Virus record (IMG/VR): IMGVR_UViG_3300010340_000989
Coordinates: 1 to 64,000 of that record
Length of the DNA: 64,000 nt
Source: a virus
Taxonomy: Duplodnaviria; Caudoviricetes
Strand: one strand, 5' to 3'
Both the position numbers and the translations under genes were made by a program. The notes beneath the pieces are model-generated. The model had not been told where the DNA came from, searched no databases, and saw only the letters and a list, made by a program, of their open reading frames with translations. Numbering within the stretch: the first letter of the stretch is position 1; every line of letters starts with the position of its first letter. This document shows positions 28,501 through 53,767 of this stretch, piece by piece.

Positions 28501-29001
28501 TCTCATATAAGTGGTCCACAAAAATATGATACTTATGGAAATCCAACTCCTATACCAATTTCGGTTGGTGCAGTTAGTAGTATGGTTAGTTCACCAACTA
28601 GTGTATCAGTTCAAACAATTTGGCCATATTTTGTTGGTAAAGTTGATCAGACATTTACAAATATTACATCATCTGATGTAATAACATATGGTACTGCAAT
28701 ATTGGCACAATCTAATGCTAATATTAGTGTTAATTTTGGAACGATTGCAACGGAAAAAGGATTTTTTGCGATACCTCAATCAGAAGGATCACAAACAACA
28801 GCAACTTATTTAAGTTGGATAGATTCGGTAAATACAAATAATAAAGAAAATATACCAGGAACTTTATTTAATGGATCACCATTTATAGTTAGTAATGTTT
28901 CTTATAATGGATTATCTCATACTTATAGTGTTTATTTCTTCACATATTCTACTGCCACTCAAGGTCCATGGACTATTCAAACGACTGCACTACCATCATA
29001 A
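25585..29001 (+). CDS. collagen-like (Gly-X-Y) virion fibre protein with beta-rich C-terminal domain
   Basis: Extensive GPT/GPQ/GVQ triplets interrupted by one globular insert; T/S-rich C-terminus. Confidence 0.85.
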
Positions 29002-29016
29002 CGTGATAAATTATTT

Positions 29017-29025
29017 TAATATATA
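29017..29025 (+). promoter_or_regulatory. putative late promoter TAATATATA
   Basis: Recurrent motif. Confidence 0.6.
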
Positions 29026-29034
29026 GATTTAATA

Positions 29035-32000: not shown

Positions 32001-33639
32001 AATTCCTGGTTTAAATAGAAGTTTTAAACTTATTCTTGGAAATGGTGGTAGAGTTGAAAATGGATATACTTGGTCTGTTGCTTATAATGGGACAAGGCTT
32101 GTTGAGTATGTTGAAGGTAGAGTTGAACCGCATGTTTTAGATTTCTTATGGTCTACAAGTAGCGTTCCTGAAGGTGAATATTCATTAGCTAAGTATATGT
32201 TAGAAGAACCTCGTGATGATTTTCAAACAACTGGATCAGCATTTGGTAAAGATTTTACTAGTGTTAAAAGAATGATGGGATGGTTCGGTACAGTAAATTC
32301 AATATCTTCACCAGGAATAGGTGGTTCTACTGTATTCCCTAGAGGTTCTATAATTTTTGTAAATGAAGTTTTTGTTTATTGTGAAGCTCAAACTACAACA
32401 ACACCAGGTGTGACAATTTCCTTTGGTTTATCACAACCAACACTTGGAGGATCCTACGGAGCATCAATATCAAGTTGGAGTCCATCATTATCATCCTTTG
32501 GTGTTTCTGATAGTAGAAAAATTCTTTTCCCTGAAAGATCATTAGGTGACTTTGTAACAGGAAGTGTTTATTACACAAATTCACCAGTTGGTATAATAAG
32601 ACTTAATGAGCCTGCCATGGTTGTAATATCAATTGATGGTGGATCCTTAGAGGCTAATACATTTATAAAATGTATGGTTCCTTATATAGTTGATGAAGCA
32701 TCATTTAATAGTATTTCAGGAACTAATTATATAGGATCACCAAGTGTATCTAGTGGTTCAGCTAGTTCAACAAACTCATTCTTACCTCTACCAGTTCCTA
32801 AAATAAATTTAATGAAAGATACTCAATCGATTGATGTGTATGACTCATCTATTAACGGAATTTTTGCAACCCAGGCTATTGTACACAATTATCCAGTTTT
32901 AATAAATATGGATTTCACTAGTGAGCATTTTAGTAATCCAGAAAATAGAATTTTTATTGAAATGGTTCATTATAAAAGAAAAACTAAAAAAGTTATTTAT
33001 GATGGGGAAATGTTGCCAATTGGAACAAAATCTAATGGAAAATCTTATGTAGTACCAGCTAAGCAAATAGCTGATATAGGTCAGGACACAAGTCTTCCAT
33101 GGGTAGCTGGTGGGTTTTGGTCAAGAGTTGGAGATTCTAATTGGAATAACTCTTTATTAGTACCTGCAAAAATTGGAATAGATAGACCTAATCATTATGA
33201 AATAACGAGTTATACTATGAGCACATATAATATATGGGAATATTTTACAGGTAGGTTTGAATTTTATAATGTTAAATATAGGGATGTAACAAATGCTGTT
33301 CAAGATCTTTATACATTAATACCCGCTTCAGGAAAAAGTAAAGGAGGTAAAAATTTACCAACCAGTAGATATTCCTATTCTCCTTATTATACACCATATT
33401 ATTGTGCATTTAGATATATACAATGGGTACCAAGTGCAAACGGTGGTAGAGGACAGATAGTATCCGGACCTCTTTCAAAAATTATTAAAGTAACTGGATT
33501 TAATTTCCCATTTCAAACAAATTATGTTAAAAGTGCTGAATTTGGAGTACCAGTCTGTGATATAAGTACTAATTGGACAACTGACTGGCCTGATTCTTAT
33601 AAAGAATTGAAATGTGATTGGGTAAGTAATATCCCATAA
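29035..33639 (+). CDS. collagen-like virion fibre protein with large C-terminal domains
   Basis: Two long Gly-X-Y tracts, duplicated 34-aa block, ~590-aa non-collagen C-terminus. Confidence 0.85.
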
Positions 33640-33781: not shown

Positions 33782-36700
33782 ATGTCACATTATCCAAAAA
33801 TATTCGATTTCGTAGGTACTGGTGGTTCTGGGGTTGGTCCAGGATTAACTTTTTCTGGACAAAATTATGTCATAGTAAGGTCGGTTAATACAGGAGTTCC
33901 TGCTACGGATGGGGTAACTAATGGAACTGCTTTATTAAATGGATTAGCTCAATTAGATTTACTTGATTGGGGCACGCGATCTTTAGATAATATGGGATCA
34001 TTACTATTAACTCCCGGTATTTATAACTTAGTTGATCAAACAATTACTATGATTGATTTCATCAATATAGTTGGTATATCCACTAATCGTAGAGATACTA
34101 TTATTACCGCAGATTCAATGACATCAAATCAAAACCACATTTATTGGGGAAATGTAATAACTGCTGGATTGCAAAATGTCGAATTAATTGCTGATATTAG
34201 TCATAGCGCAATAATGTTAGGTGGTGATGATACATCATTTCCTATAGTTAGAAATGTTTATTTTGGAAGTGAAAATATATTTTACAATTCAAATTATGGA
34301 TTTAATAATTTAGTTGGGATATATGATAATTGTGAATGGATTAATGGAATTAATTACGCATTTATAGCAAATGAAAATATATCAGCAACAATAACTAATA
34401 TTAAAATGTCAAATGTTAGTAATGCATTTATAGCTGGCATTGATATCTCAGGAACAATAAATAATATCACAATACAAGATGTCGGGTTTGTATTCTATGC
34501 TGATGGTGATATATCCGGATCAATAAGTAATGTTAAAATAAATAATTCAAGTGGTTATATATGTTATGCTGGTTTATCAATCTCGGGAAAAATTGATAAT
34601 ATCATCGCGGGTGGTGTTTATGTTGGATTCTTTGCTATTTATATTTCTGGAAAAATAACTAATATTAGTATAGATACTAGTAGTTTTGCAATATTCTCTG
34701 CTATTAATGATATTTCTGGAATAGTAAATGACGTTGTATTGGGTAATGTTGGATCTCAGGCATTCGACGCTGGTAATATATCAGGAACAATAAATAATAT
34801 TACTATAAGTAATAGTTCTAATGCATTCTATGTAAGTAATAATCTTTCCGGAACTATAAATGATATTATCATTGATAATGCTAGTAGTGATGTATTTTAT
34901 GCTAATAATATATCAGGAATAATAACTAATATTATAATCGGTGAAGTTTCTAGTAATTATATATTTAATAGTGCTACTTTTTCAGGAACAATAATAGATG
35001 TTACGATGGGAGATGTTAATTTCGCCTTTCGTTTTACTAGTACAATTTCAGGGAAAATATCTGATGTCACAATAGGAAATGTTATAAATTACGGGTTTTT
35101 TAGTAATGGAGATATATCAGGGACAATAACTAATATTAAGATGGGTGATGTTAATTCATCATTCCTAACTTCTGGTGGTATATCAGGAACAATAACTGAT
35201 GTTACGATGGGTAACTCTAGTTACGCCTTTTCAGTAAGTGGTGATATATCAGGAACAATAACTGATGTTACGATGGGTAATATTGATAACTATGCATTCA
35301 CTGCTGATAACATAACAGGAACAATAACTGATGTTGTGATTGGTAATGTTAATTACATGGTTTCTACTAGTGGTGATATATCGGGAACAATAACTAATAT
35401 TATTTTAGGTAACACTATTATAGCATTTTATAGTGGTGGTAATATATCAGGAACAATAACTGATGTTACGATGGGTAATGTTTCTAATAAATCATTCGAT
35501 GCTGATAATATATCAGGAACAATAACTAATATTAATATGGGTGATATTCAAACATCATTTGATGGTATTATTTCAGGAACGATAAGTAATATCAACATGA
35601 ATAATGTTAGTTCTAATGCTTTTAATGGTGATGAGATATCAGGAACAATAACTAATATTAGTATAGGCAATGTTTCTGGTAATACTTTTAATACTGGTAC
35701 TTTTTCAGGAACAATAACTGGTATTAGCATGGGAAATATTACTAACGGATTTTACACCAGTGAAATTTTAGGAACAATAAATAATGTTATTATGGGTAAT
35801 GTTACTACCTATGCGTTTTTTAGTAATAATTTGGATGGAATAATAACTAATGTTACGATGGGTGATGTTAGTAATGCATTCTATTCTACTGGTAATATGT
35901 CAGGAATAATAACCGATGTTATTATGGGCACTATTAGTAATAATGCTTTCTATACCGATATTTCTAACTCAGCAACAATAATCAATATTACAATGGGTAA
36001 TGCTCCAAATTATGCATTCCATTCAATTGTTGATATTAGGAAATCTGCAATAATAAGCAATATTACAATGGGTAATGTCAATTATGCATTTCAAACAGGA
36101 GGTAATCTAGCTGGGAAAATAACTGATGTCATTATGGGTAATGTCGCTAACGCATTTTTAGCTAGTGCTGGTGATATTGCCGGATCAATAAGTAACATCA
36201 CAATGGGTGATGTTAGTAACATAGCATTTTATGCTGATTATCTAGGATTTATTGGTGGAATAATAACTAATGTTACGATGGGTGATGTTACAAATTATGC
36301 ATTCCGTTCAAAATTTAATAGTATTTCCGGAACAATAACTAATATTAAAATAGGTAATGTTATTGATACTGCATTTTTGGCTAATGGTGGAATTGACGGA
36401 ACAATAACTAATATTACGATGGGTAATGTTAGTTCTGGTTTTGTAATTAATTTTGATGGTATTTCCGGAACAATAACTGACATTATTATAGGTGATGGAA
36501 ATATTGGATTCTATGTAGAGGGTGGTGACATCTCCGGAAAAATAACGAATATTACGATGGGTAATTTTGCTACAGGAATATTTTCTGAAAATATATCCGG
36601 AGTAGTAAGTGATATAAAAATTAGTAATACAACTAATACATTTCAAATAGCCTACAGTATATCTGGGATAATAAATAATATTATAATTATGGGCACTGTT

Positions 36701-37660
36701 AGTAATGCATTTATATCTGGTGATATATCTGGAACAATAACTGATGTTATAATGGGTAATGTTTCTAAAGGATTTTATATCACTGTTGGTGAATTATCAG
36801 GAATAATAAATAATATTACCATGGGTGAGGTTGGATTAGGATTTTCTACTACTGGTGGTAGTATTTCGGGAACAATTAGTCATGTTAATATGAGAACTGC
36901 TACTAGTGCATTTAGTGTTATTTCTAGTGGTAATATATCTGGAACAATAACTGATGTTACGATGGGTGATGTTGATTATGGATTTCAAACTGAAGATGGT
37001 GATATATCTGGTACAATAACTAATGTTACTATGGGTAATGTTGCAGGATTAGCTGCATTTTATACAGGAAAAGGAGCTCCTTCAGGTAGTGATATATCTG
37101 GAATAATAACTAATGTTACTATGGGTAATTGTAATTCCGAAGCATTCTGGGCTAGTAGCGGTGATATATCTGGAATAATAAATAATGTCAGTATTGGTGA
37201 TGTTTATATAGCATTTCGAGGTGTTGGTTCTATCTCAGGAATAATTAATAATGTTAAAATGGGTGATGTCGATATAGCATTTAATGCTAATAATATTGAT
37301 ATATCTGGATCAATATCTAATGTTACCATGGGTAATTGTGGTAATTCATTCAAAAGTGATAGTGGATCTATCACAGGTAAAATACACTATGTCAAATCAA
37401 ATGGTAGTATTGTTACGGCTGGAAGTTTTACAGGAGAATTATTAAACTGTGAATTTGATTGTCTTGGAAAAGCTACAACCGTAATAAATGAAGTTGGTTC
37501 TACCGCAATAATTGAACGATGTAAATTACTATCTGATGCTGTCCCAACTATTTATTCATCAACATCTGTTAATGTTCAAATACTTTACACAATTATTAAT
37601 AATGGAACTACTAATATCACACCAATACCAGCTACTAATTATAATCTAAGTACTTGGTAA
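33782..37660 (+). CDS. beta-solenoid repeat protein, paralog 1 (putative virion fibre/adhesin)
   Basis: Roughly 45 repeats of ~22-aa ISGTITNxxMGxVxxxF; shared N- and C-caps. Confidence 0.75.
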   Translation: MSHYPKIFDFVGTGGSGVGPGLTFSGQNYVIVRSVNTGVPATDGVTNGTALLNGLAQLDLLDWGTRSLDNMGSLLLTPGIYNLVDQTITMIDFINIVGISTNRRDTIITADSMTSNQNHIYWGNVITAGLQNVELIADISHSAIMLGGDDTSFPIVRNVYFGSENIFYNSNYGFNNLVGIYDNCEWINGINYAFIANENISATITNIKMSNVSNAFIAGIDISGTINNITIQDVGFVFYADGDISGSISNVKINNSSGYICYAGLSISGKIDNIIAGGVYVGFFAIYISGKITNISIDTSSFAIFSAINDISGIVNDVVLGNVGSQAFDAGNISGTINNITISNSSNAFYVSNNLSGTINDIIIDNASSDVFYANNISGIITNIIIGEVSSNYIFNSATFSGTIIDVTMGDVNFAFRFTSTISGKISDVTIGNVINYGFFSNGDISGTITNIKMGDVNSSFLTSGGISGTITDVTMGNSSYAFSVSGDISGTITDVTMGNIDNYAFTADNITGTITDVVIGNVNYMVSTSGDISGTITNIILGNTIIAFYSGGNISGTITDVTMGNVSNKSFDADNISGTITNINMGDIQTSFDGIISGTISNINMNNVSSNAFNGDEISGTITNISIGNVSGNTFNTGTFSGTITGISMGNITNGFYTSEILGTINNVIMGNVTTYAFFSNNLDGIITNVTMGDVSNAFYSTGNMSGIITDVIMGTISNNAFYTDISNSATIINITMGNAPNYAFHSIVDIRKSAIISNITMGNVNYAFQTGGNLAGKITDVIMGNVANAFLASAGDIAGSISNITMGDVSNIAFYADYLGFIGGIITNVTMGDVTNYAFRSKFNSISGTITNIKIGNVIDTAFLANGGIDGTITNITMGNVSSGFVINFDGISGTITDIIIGDGNIGFYVEGGDISGKITNITMGNFATGIFSENISGVVSDIKISNTTNTFQIAYSISGIINNIIIMGTVSNAFISGDISGTITDVIMGNVSKGFYITVGELSGIINNITMGEVGLGFSTTGGSISGTISHVNMRTATSAFSVISSGNISGTITDVTMGDVDYGFQTEDGDISGTITNVTMGNVAGLAAFYTGKGAPSGSDISGIITNVTMGNCNSEAFWASSGDISGIINNVSIGDVYIAFRGVGSISGIINNVKMGDVDIAFNANNIDISGSISNVTMGNCGNSFKSDSGSITGKIHYVKSNGSIVTAGSFTGELLNCEFDCLGKATTVINEVGSTAIIERCKLLSDAVPTIYSSTSVNVQILYTIINNGTTNITPIPATNYNLSTW

Positions 37661-37682
37661 AAATTTGGGAAGTAATCTTACA

Positions 37683-37691
37683 TAATATATA
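37683..37691 (+). promoter_or_regulatory. putative late promoter TAATATATA
   Basis: Recurrent motif. Confidence 0.6.
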
Positions 37692-37696
37692 TTGAA

Positions 37697-40600
37697 ATGT
37701 CTCATTATCCAAAAATATTAGATTTTGTAGGTACTGGAGGAAGTGCTGGTTTAACTTTTTCTGGACAAAATTATGTCATAGTAGAATCAGTTAATACTGG
37801 AGTTCCTGCTACAGATGGAGTAACTAATGGAACTGCTTTATTAAATGGATTAGCTCAATTAGATTTACTTGATTGGGGCACGCGATCTTTAGATAATATG
37901 GGTAGTTTATTATTAATGCCTGGAATCTATAACTTAGTTGATCAGACAATCACTATGATTGATTTCATCAATATAGTTGGTATATCCACTAATCGTAGAG
38001 ATACTATTATTACCGCAGATTCAATGACATCAAGCCAAAACCACATTTATTGGGGAAATGGAATAACTGCTGGATTACAAAATGTCGAATTAATTGCTGA
38101 TGTTGCAAATGATGCAATAATGTTAAGAGGAAGAGAATTATCATTTCCTATTATTGAAAATGTTTATCTTGGAAGTGAAAATATGTGTTTTAATTTGTTC
38201 GGATCCTATGGATTTAGTGATCTAGTTGGTATTTGGAACAATTGTGAGTGGGCAACTGGGATTAATTATGCGTTTGTTGCGGAAAATATATTAGCAACAA
38301 TAACTAATATTATAATGGGTAATACGAATATTGCTTTCTATTGTGTGACTGGTAATATATCCGGAACAGTTAGTAACATTACTATGGGTGATGTCAATAA
38401 CTCGTTTTATACTGGAGGTGATATTTCTGGAACAATAAATAATATTAAAGTAGGTAATGCTTCTTCATCATTATTTTCTATTGGTGGTGAAATGTCAGGG
38501 ATAATAACTGATGTTATTATGAATGATGTTTATTTTGCATTCACAGTAAATGGTAATATATCAGGAATGATTAGTAATATTATTATTGGTAATGTTTCTG
38601 AAGATACATTTAATACAGGTAATATATCAGGAAATATAACTGATATTATAATGGGTAATATTGCGAATAACGCTTTCTATATTGTAGGCACTATGTCAGG
38701 AACAATAGCTAATATTACGATGGGTGATGTTACAAGTTCTGTATATGATGTTCTTGGTGATATGTCAGGAAAAATAACTAATATATTAATAGGGGATGTA
38801 TCAAATGCGTTTCATACATCTGGAAGTATAACAGGAATACTAACCGATATTAAAATGGGTAATGTTTCTGGTAAATCATTTCACGCTCAAGATAATATAT
38901 CAGGTACAATTACTAATGTAGTAATGGGTAATGTTAGTTACGAAGGATTCTATGCTCAATATGGTGATATCTCAGGAAAAATAACTGATATCAAAATAGG
39001 TACTATTTATGGTACATCATCTTTTACAGCCAACGGTAGTATCTCAGGAATAATAACCAATGTTACAATGGGTGATATTACTAATAATGGATTTTATGCT
39101 TATACCGATATTTCTGGATCAATATCTAATATTTTGATGGGTAATGTTCCAACTGGTAGATCATTCCAAGCCAATAACGATATATCTGGGACAATAACTA
39201 ATATTATAATGGGTGATGTTTTAGGAGAATATGCATTCTATGCTGGTAGTAATATTTCTGGATCAATAAGAGATATTATTATAGGTAGTGTTAGTAATAC
39301 ATTCTTTTCTGTTAATGAGATATCTGGTTCAATAAATAGTGTTATTATGGGTAATGTCACAAATAGGGCATTCTGGACTGGTGGAAATATGTCAGGAATA
39401 ATATCTGATGTTAAAATGGGTAATGTTACAGATTATGCTTTTTACATTGATAACTCACTCTCAGGAATAATAAATAATATTATAATTGGTAATGCTCAGT
39501 CAGTATTTCGATCTAATTCTTCAATATCAGGGACAATAACTAATATTATTATTGGTGATATTTCACAATATGTATTTTATGTTTTTGGATCTGGGGATAT
39601 ATCAGGTAAAATATGTAATATAACAATTGGAAATGTTTATAGAGCATTTAAATCTTATAACATTTCAGGAGAAATAACTAATATTATAATAGGAGAAGTC
39701 AATAATGCTGCATTCTATTCTTCTAATTCTATATCAGGAAAAATATCTGATGTTAAAATGAATGGTGTTTATAATGCATTCATTTGTGATAATTTATTAT
39801 CAGGGACTATAACTAATATAACAATGGGTACAGTTAGTAATTATGCATTCTATGTCACTGGTGGTGATTTATTAGGGTCAATATCTGATATTATAATTGG
39901 TAATGTTACTGGTTTTGTATTTCGATCTAACAATATTTTAGGAACGATAAATAATGTTGTTATGGGTGATGTTGATAATAGTGTGTTTTATACTGGAGGT
40001 GATATATCAGGAGTAATAAGAGATATTACTATAGGTAATGCTATTGAGTATGTATTTTACGCACCCAATGGTAGTATGTTAGGAACAATAAGTAGTATTA
40101 CAATGGGTGACGTTGGTAATACTGCATTCTATTCATATAATTCTATTTCAGGGACAATCACCGATGTTATTATGTATGATGTCAATTATGCTTTCCAATC
40201 TATTATTGGAGATATATCTGGAAATATAACTAATATCAAAATGGGTGAGGTTACTAGCTCATTTTTCTCTGTTAATATAACAGGTACAATTACTGATATT
40301 ACTATGGGTAATATCAGTAATATTGCATTCTATTCTAGTAATTCAATCTCAGGAACTATAAATAATATTAGAATGGGTAACATCTATAATGAAGCATTTA
40401 ATGCTGACAACATATCAGGAGTAATAACTAGTGTTGTGATGAAAAATGTTAGTGGTAATTATGCTTATTATGTAGTTGGTGATATATCTGGAACAATAAG
40501 TGATGTTATTATGGGTAATGTTTCATTTTATGCATTCCATTCTAATACTGGTAATATTTCCGGAACTATAACTAATATTACGATGGGTGATGTTGGTTAT

Positions 40601-41611
40601 CTATTTTATGCTGATGGTAATATTTCTGGAAAAATAGATAATATCACAATGAATAATGCCAATTATCCATTTTATGCTAATACTGGTAATATTTCCGGAA
40701 CTATAAATCATGTTACGATGGGTGATGTTTCAACTACATTCTACGCTAATAACATCTCATCTACAATAATGAATGTTAAAATGGGTAATGTGATTAAGTA
40801 TGCATTCTATGCTAATACTGGTAATATCTCAGGAAATATAACTAATATAACGATGGGTAATGTTTATAATGCATTTCATGCTCATGGTGATATATCAGGA
40901 ATAATAAGTGATATTATCATGTCTGATATTATTAATCCTAGTTTAGATCCTGGTAATGTATTTATCAGTATTTCTAGTAACATTTCGGGTGTAATAAATA
41001 ATATAATTATTGGTAATGATGGTAGATATATTTTTCATACTCAAGCTGGTGATATATCCGGAACAATAAGTAATATTATTGTAGGTGATGTCGAATCTAT
41101 ATTTTATTCTATTGGTAATATTTCCGGAACTATAACTAATATTAAAATGGGTGATGGAGAACAACCATTTCGTGCGACCAGTAATATTTCAGGAATAATA
41201 AATGATGTTATAATCGGTAGTGCTACTTTGGCATTTTATGCTATTGGTAATATATCAGGAACAATAAATAATATTAAAATGAGTAATATTACAAGTACTT
41301 ATTCATTTTATGCAAATAACATTTCATCAACAATGAGTTATGTTGAATCTAATGGATCTATTAATACAGGTGGTAGCTTTACTGGAAAATTAATAAATTG
41401 TGAATTCGATTGTAGAGGGAAAGGGATAACAGTAATTAATAATTTAGGATCTAATGCAATAATTGAGAATTCAAAATTATTATCAGATACAGGATTTTAT
41501 TCTATTTCAGCATCAGCATCTATTTCTGCTCAAATACTTTATACGATTACAAATGAAGGAATAGATCCTTTGATTACAGTACCTGTGACTAATTATAATT
41601 CAGACATATAA
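37697..41611 (+). CDS. beta-solenoid repeat protein, paralog 2
   Basis: Same MSHYPKI start, repeats and NCEFDC C-cap. Confidence 0.75.
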   Translation: MSHYPKILDFVGTGGSAGLTFSGQNYVIVESVNTGVPATDGVTNGTALLNGLAQLDLLDWGTRSLDNMGSLLLMPGIYNLVDQTITMIDFINIVGISTNRRDTIITADSMTSSQNHIYWGNGITAGLQNVELIADVANDAIMLRGRELSFPIIENVYLGSENMCFNLFGSYGFSDLVGIWNNCEWATGINYAFVAENILATITNIIMGNTNIAFYCVTGNISGTVSNITMGDVNNSFYTGGDISGTINNIKVGNASSSLFSIGGEMSGIITDVIMNDVYFAFTVNGNISGMISNIIIGNVSEDTFNTGNISGNITDIIMGNIANNAFYIVGTMSGTIANITMGDVTSSVYDVLGDMSGKITNILIGDVSNAFHTSGSITGILTDIKMGNVSGKSFHAQDNISGTITNVVMGNVSYEGFYAQYGDISGKITDIKIGTIYGTSSFTANGSISGIITNVTMGDITNNGFYAYTDISGSISNILMGNVPTGRSFQANNDISGTITNIIMGDVLGEYAFYAGSNISGSIRDIIIGSVSNTFFSVNEISGSINSVIMGNVTNRAFWTGGNMSGIISDVKMGNVTDYAFYIDNSLSGIINNIIIGNAQSVFRSNSSISGTITNIIIGDISQYVFYVFGSGDISGKICNITIGNVYRAFKSYNISGEITNIIIGEVNNAAFYSSNSISGKISDVKMNGVYNAFICDNLLSGTITNITMGTVSNYAFYVTGGDLLGSISDIIIGNVTGFVFRSNNILGTINNVVMGDVDNSVFYTGGDISGVIRDITIGNAIEYVFYAPNGSMLGTISSITMGDVGNTAFYSYNSISGTITDVIMYDVNYAFQSIIGDISGNITNIKMGEVTSSFFSVNITGTITDITMGNISNIAFYSSNSISGTINNIRMGNIYNEAFNADNISGVITSVVMKNVSGNYAYYVVGDISGTISDVIMGNVSFYAFHSNTGNISGTITNITMGDVGYLFYADGNISGKIDNITMNNANYPFYANTGNISGTINHVTMGDVSTTFYANNISSTIMNVKMGNVIKYAFYANTGNISGNITNITMGNVYNAFHAHGDISGIISDIIMSDIINPSLDPGNVFISISSNISGVINNIIIGNDGRYIFHTQAGDISGTISNIIVGDVESIFYSIGNISGTITNIKMGDGEQPFRATSNISGIINDVIIGSATLAFYAIGNISGTINNIKMSNITSTYSFYANNISSTMSYVESNGSINTGGSFTGKLINCEFDCRGKGITVINNLGSNAIIENSKLLSDTGFYSISASASISAQILYTITNEGIDPLITVPVTNYNSDI

Positions 41612-41635
41612 CAAATGTGGGTAGATTATCTTCTA

Positions 41636-41644
41636 TAATATATA
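41636..41644 (+). promoter_or_regulatory. putative late promoter TAATATATA
   Basis: Recurrent motif. Confidence 0.6.
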
Positions 41645-41669
41645 TTTGAATAATAATAAAAATTCATAA

Positions 41670-44600
41670 ATGTCTCATTATCCAAAAATATTTGATTATG
41701 CCGGGAGTGGTGGAGGTGGAGGTTTAACTTTTTCCGGACAAAACTATGTTATAGTAGAATCGGTTAATACTGGAGTTCCTGCTACGGATGGAGTAACTAA
41801 TGGTAATAGATTATTAAATGGGTTAATCCAATTAAATTCTCTCGACTGGGGTACTCGATCTTTAAATAGTATGGGTAGTCTATTATTAATGCCTGGAACT
41901 TATAACTTAGTTGATCAGACAATCACTATGATTGATTTTACCAATATAGTTGGTATATCCACTAATCGTAGAGATACTATTATTACCGCAGATTCGATGG
42001 CAACAAATCAAAACCATATCTATTTTGGATCAGGTATAACTGCTGGATTACAAAATGTTGAATTGATTGCTGATGTTGCAAATGATGCAATAATGTTAGG
42101 AGGTGATGATACATCATTTCCTATTATTGAAAATGTTTATTTTGGAAGTGAGAATATGCTTGTTAATTCATTATTTAATTTTGGATTTAATAATTTGATT
42201 GGTAAATATGACAATTGTGAGTGGATTAGTGGGATTAATTACGCATTTTCATCTAATCAAGATATATCAGCAACAATAACTGATGTTAAAATGGGTGATG
42301 TTAGTTTCGGATTTTATGCTTTAGATAATATATCAGGAACTATTAGTAATATTAGAATGAATACTGTTAATATTGGATTTGTTTCAAATAATGGGGATAT
42401 ATCAGGGACAATAACTAATGTTATTATTGGTAATGTTAGCTCAGGATTTTATTCTTCATCAGATATCTCAGGAAAATTAACCAATATTAAGATTGGTGAT
42501 GTTATTAATTATGCAATAGGTTCAAGTGGTAATATCTCAGGAAAGATAAATAATGTCAGAATTGGTGAGGTTAGTACAGGAGCATTTTATGCTACTGGTA
42601 CTTTTTCTGGGATAATAACAGATGTCATAATGGGAAATGTCAGCGGTACAGCATTTCGTTCTCAAACTGGTAATATATCAGGATTAATAAGTGATGTTAT
42701 AATGGGTAATTTTGTTGGTAACGGATTTCGTGCTAATACTGGTGATATATCGGCGAAGATAACAAATATTACTATGGGTAGTGGTAATAATGCATTTTAT
42801 GCTGTTAATAAAATATCAGGAACTATGAGTAATATAACAATGGGTGATATTACTGGAATTGCATTCCGATCCGGTGCTTCTATAACAGCCGAAATAACAA
42901 ATATTAATATAGGGAATGTTACAGGCAAATCTGTATTTGAATCTAATAGTGATAATATATCTGGAAAAATTAATCATATTACTATGGGTGATGTTGGATA
43001 TGCGTTTAACACACCTTCTGGTGATATATCTGGAACAATAAGTGATGTTATTATGGGTGATGGTGATATTTCATTTTACTCACTTGGTATAATTTCAGGA
43101 GTAATATCTAATATTACAATGGGTAATTTTTCTAGCGCATTTTCTGCACTCTATGGTATTGAAGGTATAATTAGCAATATTACTATGGGTGATATTACTA
43201 ATTATGCCTTCAATACTGATGGTGATATATCTGCAAAAATAACTGATGTTATTATAGGTGATGTTACCACTGCATTTTTAGCTAATGATGCTAATATTTC
43301 TGGAATAATAACTAATATTTCAATGGGTAATGTTCTTAACGGTTTTTCTGGAAATTTCATATCAGGAACTATGAGTTATATTAAAATGGGTAGTTCTACA
43401 AACGCATTTTCTGCTGCTAATGATATATCTGGAACAATAACTAGTGTTATTATGGGAACTGTTAGTAGTTCATTTTACGCAAATGATTTTTCTGGCACAA
43501 TAAATAATGTTACAATTGGAACTGTTAGTACTAGTGCATTCAATATTATTAATGAAATATCAGGGAAAATAAGTAATATTAATATAGGAAATGTTACTGG
43601 CACCTATACATTTAATATTGGTACTTTTTCAGGAACAATAACTGATATTATGATGGGTGATGTTAGTTATGGATTTAGATCTATTGGTAATATGTCAGGT
43701 AAAATATCTAATATTACGATGGGTCATTCTATTTATGCCTTTCGATCTCAAAATGGTGATATATCTGGAATAATAACTGATATCATAATGGGTAGTGTTA
43801 GTGTAGCATTCTTCTCTCCAGGAAGTATTTCCGGAACAATAACTAATATTACTATGGGTGATGTTAGCACTTATACATTCTATACTAGTGAAGGTGATAT
43901 ATCTGGAAAAATAAACAATATCACAATGGGTGATGTTAATAGTAAGGCATTTTGGTCTTATACTGGTGATATATCAGGAACAATTACTAATATTACTATG
44001 GGTAATGTTGATTATGCATTTAGAACAGATAGTGGTACAATATCTGGTATAATAGGTGATGTTATAATGGGTGATGTTAATAATTATGCTTTTCTTAGCA
44101 ATAATGGTGATATATCAGGAACAATAACTGATATCATTATGAATAATGTTTCTATTACAGCATTTAATAGTAACCTTGCAAATATATCAGGTGTAATAAG
44201 TAATATTAGTATGTGTGGCGTTTCAGCGTCGGTATTTAATACATCAGGTGATATGTCAGGATCAATATCTAATATAATAATGGGAGATTGTGATAGTCCA
44301 TTTGATATATCAGGTGATATATCAGGAACAATAACTAATATCATAATGGGTATTAGCACCAATGCCTTTTCTGGATCTGATATCTCAGGTAAAATAAGTG
44401 ATGTAATTATGGGAACAACTAGTACATCATTTCTAACAACCACTGGTGATATATCAGGAGCCATTGATAATATCAAAATGGTAGGATTCGGAAATGGATT
44501 TCACTCAACAGGTAATATATCTGGAACAATAACTAATATTATTATGGGTGATGGTGATATTGCATTTTATGCGGAGACAGGGAATATTTCAGGGAATATA

Positions 44601-45554
44601 ACTAACATAAATATGGGATCTATTAGCGGCAATGCTTTTATTACTTCGGGGGATATATCTGGAAATATAATTGATGTTACAATTGGTACTACTCATTATA
44701 CATTTCAAAGTATCGATGTATCTGGAAATATTAAAAATATCAATACGAATGATGTACAGAATACCACATTTAATATTTCTAATCTAATTTCAGGAACAAT
44801 AACTGATATTATTATGGGTGATGTAAATACATCATTCACATTTAATTCATTAACTGGAATAGTAGCTAATATTATTATGGCGACGGTGAGTAGTGATGGG
44901 TTTCATGGAGGTGATATATCAGGTAAAGTATCTAATATTAAAATAGGTAATGTTTTGGGTACCGCTTTCTTTTTTGATACATTATCAGGAATAATAACTA
45001 ATGTTAATATTGGTAATGTTACTGAACAAATATTTTATGCTACCAAGGATATATCAGGAGAAATAAGCTATATAAATGCAGGAAATTGTAATAGTGGATT
45101 CTATTCTAATCTTGACATATCGAGTCAAATATCCAATGTTAATATGGGTATTATTTATAATTTTCCATTTTTTGCTAATGGTGATATCACCGGAATAATA
45201 AATTATATCAATGTATCTACTAATCCAACTTACTCATTTTATGCAAATAACATTTCATCAACAATGAGTTATATTAATTCTAACGGTGGTATTTATACCG
45301 GTGTAGATTTTAAAGGAAAATTAATAAATTGTGAATTCGATTGTAGAGGGAAAGGGATAACAGTAATTAATAATATTAATTCTAGCGCAGTAATTGAGAG
45401 ATGTAAATTACTTGCAGATTCTGGACAATATTCTATATCTGCTCCATCATCTACTAGTGTTAAAATAGTTTATACAGCTACAAATAGAGGATTTAATAAC
45501 GTCACATCATCGTTATCACCTAATTATAATATCAATAGTACGTCTATTATTTAA
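41670..45554 (+). CDS. beta-solenoid repeat protein, paralog 3
   Basis: Same architecture as paralogs 1 and 2. Confidence 0.75.
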   Translation: MSHYPKIFDYAGSGGGGGLTFSGQNYVIVESVNTGVPATDGVTNGNRLLNGLIQLNSLDWGTRSLNSMGSLLLMPGTYNLVDQTITMIDFTNIVGISTNRRDTIITADSMATNQNHIYFGSGITAGLQNVELIADVANDAIMLGGDDTSFPIIENVYFGSENMLVNSLFNFGFNNLIGKYDNCEWISGINYAFSSNQDISATITDVKMGDVSFGFYALDNISGTISNIRMNTVNIGFVSNNGDISGTITNVIIGNVSSGFYSSSDISGKLTNIKIGDVINYAIGSSGNISGKINNVRIGEVSTGAFYATGTFSGIITDVIMGNVSGTAFRSQTGNISGLISDVIMGNFVGNGFRANTGDISAKITNITMGSGNNAFYAVNKISGTMSNITMGDITGIAFRSGASITAEITNINIGNVTGKSVFESNSDNISGKINHITMGDVGYAFNTPSGDISGTISDVIMGDGDISFYSLGIISGVISNITMGNFSSAFSALYGIEGIISNITMGDITNYAFNTDGDISAKITDVIIGDVTTAFLANDANISGIITNISMGNVLNGFSGNFISGTMSYIKMGSSTNAFSAANDISGTITSVIMGTVSSSFYANDFSGTINNVTIGTVSTSAFNIINEISGKISNINIGNVTGTYTFNIGTFSGTITDIMMGDVSYGFRSIGNMSGKISNITMGHSIYAFRSQNGDISGIITDIIMGSVSVAFFSPGSISGTITNITMGDVSTYTFYTSEGDISGKINNITMGDVNSKAFWSYTGDISGTITNITMGNVDYAFRTDSGTISGIIGDVIMGDVNNYAFLSNNGDISGTITDIIMNNVSITAFNSNLANISGVISNISMCGVSASVFNTSGDMSGSISNIIMGDCDSPFDISGDISGTITNIIMGISTNAFSGSDISGKISDVIMGTTSTSFLTTTGDISGAIDNIKMVGFGNGFHSTGNISGTITNIIMGDGDIAFYAETGNISGNITNINMGSISGNAFITSGDISGNIIDVTIGTTHYTFQSIDVSGNIKNINTNDVQNTTFNISNLISGTITDIIMGDVNTSFTFNSLTGIVANIIMATVSSDGFHGGDISGKVSNIKIGNVLGTAFFFDTLSGIITNVNIGNVTEQIFYATKDISGEISYINAGNCNSGFYSNLDISSQISNVNMGIIYNFPFFANGDITGIINYINVSTNPTYSFYANNISSTMSYINSNGGIYTGVDFKGKLINCEFDCRGKGITVINNINSSAVIERCKLLADSGQYSISAPSSTSVKIVYTATNRGFNNVTSSLSPNYNINSTSII

Positions 45555-47934: not shown

Positions 47935-48042
47935 ATGAAGAATGTAAAGTTATATGAAGAATTTATATCATTTCAATCACTTGTTAATCTTGTAAAAAAG
48001 ATTGGTGGTATTTTCTATATAAAAAATTGGACTAAATATTAA
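47935..48042 (+). CDS. 35-aa peptide with capsid-targeting-like leader
   Basis: Not in track; MKNVKLYEEFISFQSLVNLVKKIGGIFYIKNWTKY*, TAATG overlap with next gene. Confidence 0.55.
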   Translation: MKNVKLYEEFISFQSLVNLVKKIGGIFYIKNWTKY

Positions 48043-48443
48043 TGAGACATTTAAAAAAATTTGAAAACACACAAGAAGAAAATATCTTCAAAAGAGATGA
48101 AATAGGTGATATTATAAATGAATTCGCCGATTCTTTTGATATTGAAGAAGTTGATGATATAATCATATATCCAGATATAGATTCGTATGGTTCGGATCCC
48201 TCTACATTTTTAGGTGAATTATCTGAAATAGATCATGGTATAACCACATCTTTTAAAATTTATATTCCATATGATTATGATTATTCTGATTTTAATGACT
48301 TATGCAATACATATATCAAAACATTTAATACTCTTAAATCATTAAATGGTAAAATGGAAATGTTTAATGTTGAAATTTTAGAAGATTATTTTTTTATAGA
48401 TTTTGATTCAACTTCAATAGTAATAGGTTTACAAAAAATATAA
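48042..48443 (+). CDS. acidic protein with capsid-targeting-like leader
   Basis: MRHLKKFEN. Confidence 0.7.
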   Translation: MRHLKKFENTQEENIFKRDEIGDIINEFADSFDIEEVDDIIIYPDIDSYGSDPSTFLGELSEIDHGITTSFKIYIPYDYDYSDFNDLCNTYIKTFNTLKSLNGKMEMFNVEILEDYFFIDFDSTSIVIGLQKI

Positions 48444-48448
48444 GTATA

Positions 48449-48868
48449 ATGAAACATCTTAGAAGATTTAATGAATCATATATTAATACAGATGAAATAA
48501 AAAATTATATCTATGATATTTTTTCTGATTTAGATGATTATAATATAAAAGTTCAATCTTGTAAAGAAGATATTGGTGTTCTTTATTTCAATGTAGTTAA
48601 AAAACATCTTGAGTTTCTATATAATAATTATGATATTACTGAAATTATAGAAATATCTATTAATAAAAAATATTATGAAGGATCATTAAATTATAAATAT
48701 TTTAAAGAGATGAGTGGATCTTTAATTAGTTATATGTTATCAGAAGACTTTGATTATATAATAGAACCTGTTTATCCACAATCAGTTGGAATTGGATATA
48801 AACTCAATAATATAAGTGAAATTGAAAATATGGAACTTGTGAGTCTAAATTTTAGATTTTTTCAATAA
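48449..48868 (+). CDS. acidic protein with capsid-targeting-like leader
   Basis: MKHLRRFNES. Confidence 0.7.
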   Translation: MKHLRRFNESYINTDEIKNYIYDIFSDLDDYNIKVQSCKEDIGVLYFNVVKKHLEFLYNNYDITEIIEISINKKYYEGSLNYKYFKEMSGSLISYMLSEDFDYIIEPVYPQSVGIGYKLNNISEIENMELVSLNFRFFQ

Positions 48869-49117: not shown

Positions 49118-49853
49118 ATGAATAAGAGGGGAACTTGGACATACCAAAGATGTAAAGAATTGGCATCTCTATTTAATAGAAGAATGAACTTTTATAAGGA
49201 ATATAAAGTTGCTTATACAACCGCTAGTAAAAATGGATGGTTAGAAGAAATATGTAAACATATGGATTATAATCAAACTCCACCAGGAACCTGGATATGA
49301 TAAATGTAAATTAGAAGCAATTAAATATAACAGTAAATCTGAATTTCAAAAGAAAAATTACAATGTGTATCGAAGAGCTTATGATAATGGATGGATAGAT
49401 GATATATGTGTACACATGAAATCTATTGGTAATTTATATAAAAGAATGGTCTATGTTTATATTTTTGAGGATAAATTTTTTTATGTTGGTTTAACCTGTA
49501 ATAAAGAAAGAAGAAAGGAAGAGCATTTAAAAACAAATACATCAGTTTACAATCATATCAATAAGACCAAATCAAAATTTAAATATATTGATTTAACTGA
49601 TTATATAGACGTTAATGAATCTGTTATTAAAGAGAAATATTTTTTAGATAAATTTAAAAAGGATGGGTTGATTCCTCTAAATAAAAATAAAACAGGTGGA
49701 TTAGGAGGAGGTGTAAAAAAGTGGAATTATGACACATGTAAAGAAAAATCTTTATTATGTAAAGGTAGATATGAGTTTTCAAAAAAATTTGGAAGAGCTT
49801 ATAAGGAATCAAAGCTTAATGGGTGGATTGATGAATTTTTTCCAAAAAATTAA
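49118..49853 (+). pseudogene. frameshifted GIY-YIG homing endonuclease
   Basis: Repeat WxYxxCK...GWxxxIC.HM continues across a frame change at ~49295 (TGG A TAT GAT AAA TGT); VYVY..YVGLT..R..EH in downstream part. Confidence 0.75.
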
Positions 49854-50695
49854 TAATTAAATATTATAATTTCTTTGGTTTCTTTTTTACTACCACTTTT
49901 ATTTATCTTTTCATAGTTGAAATTTAGCTCTTTATAATTAAATCCATCTGAAATAAGTTTATCTAGAATCCAAGTTTTTTTACCACCATGTTCTATTACA
50001 CCAGATATCATAAAAGATGAATTTAATTTGTTAATTTTATGACAAAAATCATATAAATTAATATCATCATTTTTATAATAAAAATTATTATATCCAGCTT
50101 CAGATATTTGTTTATCACCAATATTTCCATCTGTGTTTTTAATATATCCGTAAGGTGGATCCATATAGTAAAATGTATCTCTAGTAATAATCATTTCATT
50201 AAAATTTTTTGATGAAAAAGTTATTTTATCAGAGAATTTTCTGATATGTTGAATAAATTTTGAGACTTTTGTCTCGGTGTTGGAATTCCAAGATCTTTTA
50301 CCCCAAGTTTGATTAAATTTACCCCTTTGATTGAATCTAATCAAGTTAGAATTACAACTTAACATCAAAGCCCATAATTTAGAAGGAGTAGGGTTCAAAT
50401 TGTAACTATCTCTTAACTCAATAAAGTCTTTTTGGCTTATTTTTAAGTTTTGACAAATAGATTTAGTTTCAGTTATTATATCATCAGAATGTAATAATGC
50501 TTGATGAATGCCAATTAAATCTTTAATAACATCATTAGCAATTAATTTATCATATTTATCTACAACATTTGTATAAACAGAACCACCACCACAAAAAAGA
50601 TCAACAAAATAAGGTTTTGTATAATCAAATTCGGGTAATAGTTGTTCAAGTAGTTTAAACTTCGAACCAGTGTAGTTAAATGGTGTCTCTATCAT
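49850..50695 (-). CDS. Dam-like N6-adenine DNA methyltransferase (D12 class)
   Basis: YTGSKFKL, DLFCGGGSV, FNQ.G.FN, YMDPPY. Confidence 0.9.
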   Translation of the reverse strand: MIETPFNYTGSKFKLLEQLLPEFDYTKPYFVDLFCGGGSVYTNVVDKYDKLIANDVIKDLIGIHQALLHSDDIITETKSICQNLKISQKDFIELRDSYNLNPTPSKLWALMLSCNSNLIRFNQRGKFNQTWGKRSWNSNTETKVSKFIQHIRKFSDKITFSSKNFNEMIITRDTFYYMDPPYGYIKNTDGNIGDKQISEAGYNNFYYKNDDINLYDFCHKINKLNSSFMISGVIEHGGKKTWILDKLISDGFNYKELNFNYEKINKSGSKKETKEIIIFNY

Positions 50696-50903
50696 TTATA
50701 TCATTTATTTCTTTTATTAATTGTTTTTCAATTAATGATATTGTATCAATACCTGAAAGCGAACTAATATCATTAGCCATTGCGGCTGTCCATTCGGATC
50801 TAATTGATCTACCTATAGCTTGAATACTTATACTCTTCAAAAAAGGTTTTTTATTATTCTTAGCTTCTTTAACTTTTTTAATTAAATCTTTAATTTCATT
50901 CAT
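50676..50903 (-). CDS. 75-aa protein resembling an isolated segment of T4-like major capsid protein gp23
   Basis: ISIQAIGRSIRSEWTAAMANDISSLSGID....IEKQL..EI vs gp23 consensus V.A.SR.LKA.[WY]T.E.AQDL.A.HG.DAE.EL...L..EI (recalled). Confidence 0.55.
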   Translation of the reverse strand: MNEIKDLIKKVKEAKNNKKPFLKSISIQAIGRSIRSEWTAAMANDISSLSGIDTISLIEKQLIKEINDINDRDTI

Positions 50904-51202
50904 GGTTGATAGATAGTATAATATGCTGTTAATTCATCACCTGGATTAATATCTATAAGTGTTTTTAATCTTAATTGTTTTATTTCATTATCAATAGATT
51001 CAATTATTTCACAGTTTGGAGTAATTGAATGATTAAAAAAACCACCAAGTGGTAATCTTATATAGTTATCTGGAAATCTTTCATCGTAGATGTGTGTCAT
51101 TCCAAGGTCTGTTTCAGATGGAATAAAATCAGTTGAAAATAATCCTAATCCTTCAATTTTTGAATCACTAATTGTTAAATTAGTTGGTAGTGGTCGATAC
51201 AT
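50900..51202 (-). CDS. SET-domain protein (putative lysine methyltransferase)
   Basis: SKIEGLGLF, FFNHS..PNC, DI.PGDELT..Y. Confidence 0.88.
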   Translation of the reverse strand: MYRPLPTNLTISDSKIEGLGLFSTDFIPSETDLGMTHIYDERFPDNYIRLPLGGFFNHSITPNCEIIESIDNEIKQLRLKTLIDINPGDELTAYYTIYQP

Positions 51203-52067
51203 TATAGTTCATTATTAATAGTTCAGTTCCTTTAGTAGTTTCTTGGCCTTTCTTAGCTCCTGATATCTTATTAAATTCCTTTTCCTCCCAATGAAATTGG
51301 TCTCTTGGAAACCATTCCTCTAACTCTGGAAAATAATAGTATGATAATGACCACTTTGCTTCTAATTTTTTAATACAATCAGCTAATCTCTTATGTGTTT
51401 CTAATCCAAATTCATGATTACTATAATACTTTTCACAGTTATAGTATGGAGGATCTAAATAGAAATATGTTTCTGGACTATCATATTTTAACATTAAATT
51501 CTCAAAATCTATACTCTCAACATTTGTAATTTTATCTAGGTGATTTAATATATTCTTACCATGATTAGAACCATTCATTTTTTTTCTAAATGATTCAAAC
51601 TTACAGTTATATTTACCCTTCAAATCTATAAAAGAACTAGTTTCTGGCTTAGATCCAGAAAAAACTTGTGATAATACATATGAATATTTAACTGCATTTT
51701 GATAATCTGGATTATCCATATCTAATTTTGGTTGGTTTTTAAAAATATCTTTTTGATATTCATCAAACCATTTTTTAAATTTCGGATCGGTTGGGGATCC
51801 ATCTTTTCTTCTCTGCTGACATTCTTGACTTTCCAAGAATGTATAAAACTCTTTATATTTTCTAGCACAAGCAAATATATTAGCATTTAGAACATTAAAA
51901 TCATTATAGATTACTTTCTCTAAATCAGGATATTTATCTAAATCCATAGTTAAATAAACATTAAACATACCACTAAATGGTTCAGAAAATACTTTTATAT
52001 CTTTTGGGATAAAATCTACAATCCACTTACCCATTGAGCCACCTTTGGCACCCATGTAACTTATCAT
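51180..52067 (-). CDS. Dam-like N6-adenine DNA methyltransferase (D12 class)
   Basis: YMGAK, EPFSG, YNDFN, YLDPPY, ELLIMNY. Confidence 0.88.
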   Translation of the reverse strand: MISYMGAKGGSMGKWIVDFIPKDIKVFSEPFSGMFNVYLTMDLDKYPDLEKVIYNDFNVLNANIFACARKYKEFYTFLESQECQQRRKDGSPTDPKFKKWFDEYQKDIFKNQPKLDMDNPDYQNAVKYSYVLSQVFSGSKPETSSFIDLKGKYNCKFESFRKKMNGSNHGKNILNHLDKITNVESIDFENLMLKYDSPETYFYLDPPYYNCEKYYSNHEFGLETHKRLADCIKKLEAKWSLSYYYFPELEEWFPRDQFHWEEKEFNKISGAKKGQETTKGTELLIMNYNVSTTTN

Positions 52068-52080
52068 CTATTTAATTATT

Positions 52081-52860
52081 TTATATTTTATTTCCTTTAC
52101 TCAAATTATCAAATGCCCATAACGGTTGTAAATTTTTAAGAGAATTTACAATATCAACTGGAGTTTCCGGATCATAAGATGAAACTGGTTTTATATGATC
52201 AATATGCCATTCTCCATAATTATCCCAACTCATACCTTCCACAAATAAGCTTTCAATATACTCTTTTAATTCTATTGATGAATATCCAAGAAGTTTAATT
52301 GTCTCATCATCTTTCTTCTTACCAAATCTTTTTAGTGTATTTGTTAATATTGTTCTCCATGCTAAAATATGAGGACATCTTTTTTTAATTGATTTATACC
52401 AATTTTTTCTGTGTTTCTTAGAAGATTCTGATTTAGAATATCTTTTTCTATACTCTTTTATTTTATCTGAATTATTTTCTCTCCAAATTTTATTATATTC
52501 CTTATTTTCCTCTTTATATTTTTTATAATATTCTTTTAAAGATTCTATATTATCCTCTCTATATTTTTTATTATATTCAGACATATAATCTTTATTATTA
52601 TCTCTCCATTTTTTATTTTTTTCTAAAATATAATCTTTATTTTTTAAGTAATTTTTTATTCTTCTATCTCTCTTAACATCCTTTGGAATTAATTTATTCC
52701 TTTCTTTATTTTTTTGTTTATATTCATCAGTCGATCTTCTCTCTTTTTCTTTAATAAGAATACAGGATTTACATTGTGATTTTAATCCATCTTTCGAACT
52801 TTTAAATTTGTGAAACTCGTTAAAATCTTTTTTTATCTTACATTTACTACAAGTTTTCAT
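52081..52860 (-). CDS. HNH homing endonuclease
   Basis: CSKC..CKSC, K/E-rich repeats, WHIDHIKP..NLQPLW..DNLSKG; TAATATATA at 52881-52889 (-). Confidence 0.88.
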   Translation of the reverse strand: MKTCSKCKIKKDFNEFHKFKSSKDGLKSQCKSCILIKEKERRSTDEYKQKNKERNKLIPKDVKRDRRIKNYLKNKDYILEKNKKWRDNNKDYMSEYNKKYREDNIESLKEYYKKYKEENKEYNKIWRENNSDKIKEYRKRYSKSESSKKHRKNWYKSIKKRCPHILAWRTILTNTLKRFGKKKDDETIKLLGYSSIELKEYIESLFVEGMSWDNYGEWHIDHIKPVSSYDPETPVDIVNSLKNLQPLWAFDNLSKGNKI

Positions 52861-53143: not shown

Positions 53144-53767
53144 TTAGTCTTCTTTCTTCTTCTTTTTGAATCGACTTCTATATCCTTTGAAATTAGGATT
53201 CTTTTTAGGTTCTTTTAATCTAAATGTGACAACTTTTTTACCATTTATTGTTGGCATTCCTGTTTCATCTTTGTCAATCTTCTTGATAACAGTTTTCTTA
53301 TTTTTAAATCGTCCCATATATACAGTATCTCCAACTTCAACATCGATAGTTATTTTCTCAGATAAAGGTTTTTTCTCATACCAAAGTCCTAGTTCCAATA
53401 CTTGATTTGTAGTCAATGCTTTTTTTACTTCATCTAATAAATTAACACCGTCCCAATTAAAATTATCATAATCATCTCCATATTCACCAGGAACCTCTGA
53501 TAAGAAATATCCCTCATCTTCTAAAAATGAATTTAAATGATCAAGTAAAGGTAATAATAATCTAAGTTCTTTATGTGTGAAGTCTATAAAGGTAATATCA
53601 ACATATGAATTCTTAGTTTTGGATTTTTTAGAATCCCACAAATAGTTTATAATATTTAATTTCCCTGTTCCTAAATCAAAAAAATCTGATAATATTAATT
53701 TACATTCTTGTATAATATATTCTTCATTAGATTCTTTAATAAATTGAACAAATTTAGATATTTTCAT
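53144..53767 (-). CDS. protein with capsid-targeting-like leader and basic C-terminus
   Basis: MKISKFVQFIKES; TAATATATA at 53772-53780 (-). Confidence 0.7.
   Translation of the reverse strand: MKISKFVQFIKESNEEYIIQECKLILSDFFDLGTGKLNIINYLWDSKKSKTKNSYVDITFIDFTHKELRLLLPLLDHLNSFLEDEGYFLSEVPGEYGDDYDNFNWDGVNLLDEVKKALTTNQVLELGLWYEKKPLSEKITIDVEVGDTVYMGRFKNKKTVIKKIDKDETGMPTINGKKVVTFRLKEPKKNPNFKGYRSRFKKKKKED

Follow-up and report, generated by a model that had tools for sequence, protein, structure and literature searches.

Gene content of the locus

The window analysed here is a 64,000-nt stretch (positions 1 to 64,000) of the IMG/VR virus record IMGVR_UViG_3300010340_000989. It contains a 75-residue stand-alone open reading frame (ORF) at 50676-50903 on the minus strand, here called mini-gp23, whose core is homologous to one segment of the T4 gp23-type major capsid protein (MCP). 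The ATG of mini-gp23 shares the sequence ATGA with the TGA stop codon of the upstream SET gene (50900-51202), and the downstream D12 methyltransferase gene (49850-50695) begins inside it, with an overlap of 20 nt. The location, the length of 75 residues and the overlap with SET and methyltransferase neighbours thus agree with the original prediction, which was made from the sequence of the window alone. The features of the locus are as follows.

50676-50903, minus strand: mini-gp23, a member of subfamily A (close homologues 84-99% identical, distant ones 38-47%; Pfam Gp23 matched by 10 of 10 scanned members)
50691-50840, minus strand: capsid-derived core, residues 22-71 (Pfam alignment; hhalign to gp23 253-298 and to clade MCP 314-363)
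50841-50903, minus strand: N-terminal basic amphipathic stretch, residues 1-21 (D6, I8 and K9 conserved within the subfamily A alignment)
49850-50695, minus strand: downstream D12-class N6-adenine DNA methyltransferase (Pfam PF02086, E = 4e-29)
50900-51202, minus strand: SET-domain gene, 100 residues (Pfam PF00856, E = 7e-9)
51180-52067, minus strand: second, upstream D12-class methyltransferase-like gene (Pfam PF02086, E = 3e-12)
52081-52860, minus strand: HNH / endonuclease VII-like gene, the first of the same-strand cluster (PHROG 1035, E = 1e-20)
49365-49853, plus strand: GIY-YIG nuclease-like ORF that converges on the cluster from its 3' side (Pfam score equal to the cut-off)

The surroundings of mini-gp23 are non-structural, as had been proposed: the two D12 methyltransferases, the SET gene and the HNH gene flank it, and it does not lie in a head-morphogenesis module. 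The same holds at a second locus (L023, contig G004), where a mini again sits between two methyltransferases, this time without the SET gene. Homing-type nucleases (HNH and GIY-YIG) bracket the window cluster at its two ends.

The record as a whole is 164,996 bp long, has a G+C content of 27% and is estimated to be about half complete. It encodes T4-type topoisomerase II subunits and an RnlA-like ligase. The nearest GenBank relatives of the phage are the 'huge phages' LR756502 (642 kb) and LR745206 (635 kb), with a topoisomerase 71% identical. The phage's own MCP is not present in the 165-kb record, and tblastn with the MCPs of relatives and with their minis found no other Gp23 pieces in it.

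Similarity of mini-gp23 to gp23-type capsid proteins

On its own, mini-gp23 matched the Pfam Gp23 profile (PF07068) with E = 2.4e-4 and 21.1 bits, residues 22-71 aligning to profile positions 138-187. The curated cut-off of this profile is 24.4 bits, so the lone window ORF falls just under it. The match to PHROG 138 (major head protein) had E = 0.01. At the level of the family the signal was clear. All ten members scanned matched Gp23, with a best E of 2.7e-9, and scores above the cut-off were reached by the L020 mini (25.4 bits), the 159-residue relative P0131 (26.2 bits) and ORF451 of the cultured Xanthomonas jumbo phage XacN1 (31.1 bits). Profile comparison with hhalign aligned the family with the MCP of the phage's clade (residues 314-363, E = 6.8e-7), with a canonical T4-like MCP (E = 1.2e-7) and with T4 gp23 residues 253-298 (E = 4.4e-5). 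A tblastn search with the member P0126 matched 1,472 phage records; the matches listed lie on annotated capsid or head-vertex genes, apart from one without a name and one small XacN1 ORF. The gp23 resemblance first noticed from the sequence alone is confirmed at family level. The core of mini-gp23 is homologous to the gp23-type MCP.

As a control, five other phage genomes (T4, RsoM2USA, LR756508, Flavobacterium phage immuto and RAS14; 1.48 Mb) were searched with Gp23, and no small pieces were found at E <= 0.01. The search returned only full-length capsid genes, namely gp23 and gp24 of T4 and one MCP in each of the other four, plus one 355-residue paralogue in RAS14. A PDB sequence search with a profile of the close homologues gave no capsid match. 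T4 gp67, a small prohead core protein considered as a possible relative of gp23 or of mini-gp23, was rejected, as hhalign showed no relation.

The homology to gp23-type MCPs (PF07068; T4 gp23 and gp24) extends over about 45-50 residues, and the residues conserved there are conserved in the mini as well. By contrast with these proteins, mini-gp23 spans no more than positions 138-187 of the 376-position profile. The N-arm, I-domain and A-domain are missing, as is most of the P-domain sheet, and the protein cannot form the complete HK97-type fold or a shell. It also differs from an MCP gene in lying outside any recognisable head module and in evolving far faster.

The capsid origin of residues 1-21 is uncertain. 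This stretch is absent from the minis of subfamily B, described below, whilst residues 3-63 of P0126 align to cyanophage MCPs by tblastn. AlphaFold2 predicted a helix at residues 2-16. With an alignment of four sequences the AlphaFold2 model of the isolated mini reached a predicted local distance difference test score (pLDDT) of 60, and with 14 sequences it showed three helices at a pLDDT of 78 and a predicted template modelling score of 0.37. Foldseek of the model against the PDB gave no match, and the best score in the ESM Atlas was 0.79, to unrelated families. The predicted fold of the isolated mini is uninformative.

A stand-alone gene family with two subfamilies

An exhaustive HMMER search of 1.8 billion representatives recovered only small stand-alone relatives of 61-79 residues and 38-47% identity. 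Three close homologues are 84-99% identical and separated by in-frame insertions or deletions, and an independent activated-sludge run carries a 9-nt in-frame deletion in the mini. A close-alignment scan and a degenerate DNA pattern scan of viral and metagenome contigs found nothing. The mini is thus kept as a separate ORF of 61-79 residues down to 38% identity, and the stand-alone conservation on which the original prediction depended holds.

Subfamily A, the type found in the window, has a basic N-terminal helix and a C-terminus reading NDRDTI or similar; its members end in NDRDTI, NDRDIL or unrelated tails. Many minis of the clade carry a C-terminal tag, R-[DE]-x-K-[IL]-x-x-[IL]-[LF]. The window mini-gp23 does not match this motif, and its NDRDTI is at most a stump of the tag. 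At L023, the second subfamily A locus, the counterparts of the downstream D12 methyltransferase and the upstream D12-type gene are 93.6% and 95.5% identical at the protein level. The SET gene is missing from this otherwise 90-100% identical G004 region, the gap in the DNA alignment falling at about 50900-51200. This difference is a recent insertion or deletion directly beside the mini.

The minis of subfamily B have 61-69 residues and begin directly with the capsid-type strand. Most end in the clade tag, here of the type R-x-x-[KST]-I-x-x-[IL]-[FL] (L020, L021, G005, G007, G008 and G011). Their position is strictly conserved. At all nine loci (L014, L030, L032, L149-L152, L156 and L157, in clade contigs and LR745206) the order is a 440-residue protein, then the tagged mini, then a 405-residue protein, 8-30 kb from the capsid gene. 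Neither flanking protein has a Pfam, PHROG or PDB match.

The copied segment of gp23

The family alignment corresponds to T4 gp23 residues 251-298, the numbering having been checked on the T4 sequence. In the T4 head structures these residues contain a P-domain beta-strand and the start of the spine helix (PMC9546572). The head-length mutations A268V, A275T, D285V and D287V/N fall within this range, close to a short, negatively charged P-domain helix, and the gp31-bypass site G292 lies in the start of the spine helix (PMC9546572). Near the quasi-threefold axes, the anchor points of the lattice, this short helix is in charge contact with adjacent capsomers (PMC9546572). The copied segment adjoins this helix. 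The piece that has been kept is therefore the stretch of gp23 in which a cluster of T4 petite and giant head-length mutations and the inter-capsomer anchor contacts seen by cryo-electron microscopy come together.

Within the ten-sequence family alignment W38, M42, I52, D53 and L62 are invariant, and R32, T39, I46, G51 and E65 nearly so. The positions conserved in the minis (R32, W38, T39, M42, D45, G51-I52-D53, L62 and E65) are those conserved across gp23-type MCPs.

Gol, the 29-residue gp23 peptide that activates the Lit protease, resembles mini-gp23 in being a short, highly conserved linear gp23 stretch with an activity of its own, exerted on Lit together with EF-Tu (PMC3014915). Gol acts within full-length gp23, whereas mini-gp23 is a separate gene copying another segment. 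The link to Lit suggested in the original prediction does not fit, since Gol is located within the first quarter of gp23 (PMC3014915) and the mini aligns to 251-298.

Rapid evolution and likeness to canonical capsid proteins

The profile hidden Markov model of the family scored 32-38 bits on canonical T4-like MCPs (P0132, L024 and L025) and 23 bits on T4 gp23. On the clade's own MCPs it scored only about 20 bits, and in contigs G001 and G002 such an MCP occurs together with a mini. At the segment copied by the minis the clade MCP is almost invariant across 19 sequences. By these scores the minis are closer to canonical T4-like MCPs than to the MCP of their own clade, which makes a decoy for the phage's own capsid an awkward idea.

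The minis also change faster than the genes beside them. Between the window and L023, DNA identity was 90-100% in the flanks and 52-72% in the mini, the nonsynonymous divergence (dN) 0.03 and 0.44, and the synonymous divergence (dS) 0.16-0.24 and 0.71, respectively. The raised dS of the mini suggests that a divergent allele has been swapped in. Mean protein identity in subfamily B was 74% and 60% for the two flanking genes and 35% for the mini, and in all 28 pairs the mini was less conserved than either neighbour. The dN/dS ratio of the minis was 0.4-0.75 and below 1 in all six pairs, indicating that they are constrained, if loosely. Such rapid change would not be driven by a partner that varies as little as the resident MCP. 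The partner is thus probably not the phage's own capsid protein, and a housekeeping role in assembly becomes less likely.

These ratios also bear on whether the mini is simply decaying without function after a capsid gene was duplicated or a fragment of one captured. A dN/dS of 0.4-0.75 is high, homing-type nucleases flank the cluster, and capsid-gene debris does occur in the clade. The stretch G017:21266-21520 (-) (L154) matches the N-terminal part of Gp23 (profile 6-85, 26 bits), interrupted by six stop codons; it is apparently such debris and shows that non-functional pieces exist alongside the minis. The minis themselves, however, keep their frame and size down to 38% identity, their insertions and deletions are in frame and their conserved residues are the capsid-type ones. 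The start and stop of the window mini overlap neighbouring genes, subfamily B holds the same place at nine loci, and no pair has a dN/dS of 1 or more. Because the mini is conserved in this way, decay is a very improbable explanation.

A second mini in phage XacN1 and further capsid pieces

ORF451 of XacN1 (BBA65599.1, annotated 'hypothetical protein') has 74 residues and contains the same gp23 segment, 49% identical to XacN1's own MCP over 37 residues. Like mini-gp23 it stands alone as an ORF, within a group of small non-structural genes. It differs from the family in showing no clear likeness outside the capsid-like segment, and we therefore think that it was probably excised independently, the same piece having been taken twice, although the sequences compared are short. 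Separate origins in turn suggest that the segment itself is the useful part. The XacN1 genome paper does not mention ORF451, and a virion proteome obtained from gel bands would miss a protein of 74 residues.

XacN1 carries another such copy. ORF261 (261 residues; L040:2798-3583 (-), equivalent to AP018399.1 151297-152082) lies among replication and RNA-repair genes, and its C-terminus contains a 32-residue copy, 66% identical, of the stretch of its own MCP equivalent to gp23 100-131. This is the most conserved stretch of gp23 and may be the equivalent of the Gol/EF-Tu-binding region.

Extra Gp23 pieces, with scores up to 42 bits, were found in most of 17 large clade contigs. One group, of 54-70 residues, holds only the start of the spine helix, 'GID..E..L..EI..ID' (L015:1462-1674, L016:1453-1656, L155:1441-1605 (-) and G008:112333-112422). 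The L015 and L016 members of this group follow a glycosyltransferase-like gene, have a tag-like tail and score Z = 5-7 against the capsid protein of their own genome. Another group copies the C-terminal part of the P-domain (gp23 ~439-470), including the second head-length cluster at gp23 455-461: L012:1429-1656 (-) and 1634-1786 (-) in LR745206, L158:1513-1749 in G015, and G017:70007-70108. The L012 and L158 copies are tandem pairs, those of L012 ending in the clade tag. Truncated MCP paralogues of about 250 residues form a third group (L013:1426-2178 (-), L033:1378-2154 (-), L035:1351-2091 (+), and also in G005, G011 and G020). These cover approximately profile positions 174-323, with spine helix, A-domain and late P-domain, and lack the N-arm and linker strands; one is tagged. 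In the relative P0131 the mini segment is preceded by a longer N-terminal part. The idea of a wider strategy built on fragments of core proteins, first suggested from the window alone, fits this habit of the clade of keeping such pieces as separate small genes.

Some of these findings would suit a helper of the phage's own head assembly, in which the mini would transiently cap its own capsomers or tune the angles between them for a very large capsid. In T4 the segment governs inter-capsomer angles and head length. Subfamily B stands at a fixed place between two conserved genes within 8-30 kb of the MCP gene at nine loci, the XacN1 mini resembles its own MCP, and the clade keeps truncated MCP paralogues as well. 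Against such a role, the minis evolve several-fold faster than their neighbours whilst the clade MCP is nearly invariant at the segment, and they are more like canonical MCPs than the clade's own. The jumbo or huge T4-like phages RsoM2USA, LR756508 and RAS14 have no such gene, and the window copy lies among DNA modification genes. An own-assembly role fits XacN1 better than the huge phages, and for the family we regard it as unlikely.

Capsomer-edge mimicry as a candidate mechanism

A stand-alone contact segment that keeps its contact residues is best explained as a molecular mimic competing with the capsid protein for a partner. Our preferred, though tentative, reading, to which we give a probability of roughly 30%, is that mini-gp23 is a competitive mimic of the gp23-type capsomer edge directed at co-infecting T4-like phages. 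The protein would display, alone, one segment of the canonical gp23-type capsid protein, the T4 equivalent of which forms the capsomer edge near the quasi-threefold axes. It could then bind the surface of a gp23-type capsomer that normally receives this segment from the neighbouring capsomer. Once bound, it would cap capsomer edges, and growth of the lattice would be blocked or skewed. The likeness to canonical MCPs and the fast evolution make the capsid proteins of co-infecting T4-like phages the most likely targets, so that the mini would act as an inter-phage weapon, the resident MCP being spared through its divergence at the segment. Capsid-protein binding, the binding site, the effect on assembly and the target phage are all points that we infer here. 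The other clade minis that contain the second length cluster, gp23 455-461, would count in favour of capsomer-edge mimicry.

A parallel is offered by CpmB, Rcm, Ccm and TcaP, small proteins for which competition at the capsid protein or remodelling of its assembly has been reported or proposed, with altered capsid size and harm to a phage as the result. Ccm of SaPIbov5 is a full-length MCP homologue, whereas mini-gp23 is a single segment. CpmB of the Staphylococcus aureus pathogenicity islands (SaPIs) and Rcm are scaffold-like redirectors of capsid size encoded by satellites, and binding to the capsid protein has been shown for Rcm (PMC12409344). TcaP of the phage-inducible chromosomal island-like elements (PLE) is likewise a satellite redirector of capsid size (PMC10945586). 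Mini-gp23 shares with such assembly mimics a likeness to a segment of a head-assembly protein, but where CpmB and Rcm resemble scaffold it resembles the capsid protein itself. Nor is it satellite-encoded, since it lies in the genome of a huge T4-like phage with topoisomerase II and RnlA.

Several points weigh against this mechanism. The window ORF on its own scores below the Pfam cut-off, and the AlphaFold2 model of the isolated mini is predicted to have three helices, not strand plus helix. That the minis coincide with the head-length clusters is in part a bias of detection, because the best-conserved parts of gp23 are the easiest to detect. The divergence of the mini from the window phage's own MCP is judged from relatives, as that MCP lies outside the record. 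The XacN1 mini is similar to that phage's own canonical MCP and, if poisonous, would act on the phage that makes it. A monomeric mimic might bind poorly, since individual contacts between capsomers are weak. Finally, the neighbouring genes (DNA methyltransferases, SET and HNH) suggest counter-defence rather than assembly.

Counter-defence would be served if the mini were a decoy or antagonist of a host factor, such as a capsid-sensing immune protein, a protease or a chaperone, which would be offered a recognised capsid segment and thereby blocked or misdirected. Defence systems are known to respond to capsid proteins. CapRel binds the P-domain of the MCP, through a contact that is modelled (PMC9712102), Avs7 and Dsr1 sense MCPs with EF-Tu (PMC13581612), and Lit is activated by the Gol peptide (PMC3014915). 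The mini lies beside anti-restriction-type genes, the two D12 methyltransferases, in L023 as in the window; conflict genes typically show the rapid evolution and the replacement of alleles between near-identical flanks seen here; and the XacN1 mini copies its phage's own MCP. On the other hand, known sensors are activated when they bind the epitope, and an accurate copy should therefore set them off instead of blocking them. The copied segment differs from the Gol region, the clade MCP has already diverged at the segment and leaves little of the phage's own to shield, and no sensor is known for the host of the window phage. We regard a host-factor decoy as possible, and nearly as likely as capsomer-edge mimicry.

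The mapping to inter-capsomer and head-length positions, together with the rapid evolution, fits a conflict role and does not separate a sensor decoy from an assembly inhibitor. The probability left over is assigned to functions not yet thought of. A broader and more speculative proposal, which we hold to be doubtful, is that T4-like phages of huge and jumbo size maintain a set of excised core-protein segments (length-determining stretches of the MCP and PolB motifs), many of them tagged, for dominant-negative attack on relatives infecting the same cell, and that the phages' own core proteins have diverged at these places for immunity.

A limited literature search, including a jumbo-phage comparison (PMC7824862), found no description of fast-evolving separate genes that derive from part of a virus's own structural protein. 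Should the minis bind capsomer edges, they would serve as natural probes, encoded genetically, of how the size of large capsids is set, and would be a new kind of inter-phage weapon. If they instead engage host sensors, they would be, to our knowledge, the first protein-epitope decoys for capsid-sensing immunity. The cultured carrier XacN1 and T4-like phages make the function of the mini accessible to experiment.

Expression signals, distribution and other features of the window

A T4 late-promoter-like TATAAATA at 52884 (-), 24 nt upstream of the HNH gene, heads the cluster of HNH, methyltransferase, SET, mini and methyltransferase genes. The record contains 69 copies of TATAAATA, fewer than the chance estimate of about 100. 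Of its 241 genes, 15, among them the HNH gene, have the motif within 60 nt upstream, about three times the chance estimate. This signal is too weak to assign a timing to the cluster. A scan for sigma-70 promoters showed no excess over shuffled sequences. The only RNA run matching part of the window covers 51301-52322, outside mini-gp23, and comes from a relative.

In DNA runs the stretch is present in samples labelled freshwater, wastewater, activated sludge, anaerobic digester and marine, from 13 studies. Several ORFs in the window at 47935-48868 and 53144-53767 have N-termini of the type M-K/R-x-[LI]-K/R-x-F/Y-x-E that recall the T4 capsid-targeting sequence. The window also holds five consecutive giant ORFs of 1,138-1,534 residues (25585-33639 (+) and 33782-45554 (+)). 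The first two are full of collagen triple-helix repeats (E = 1e-79 to 1e-83) and are probably fibres. The G+C content is 38-40% across the giant-ORF region, compared with 25-28% elsewhere.

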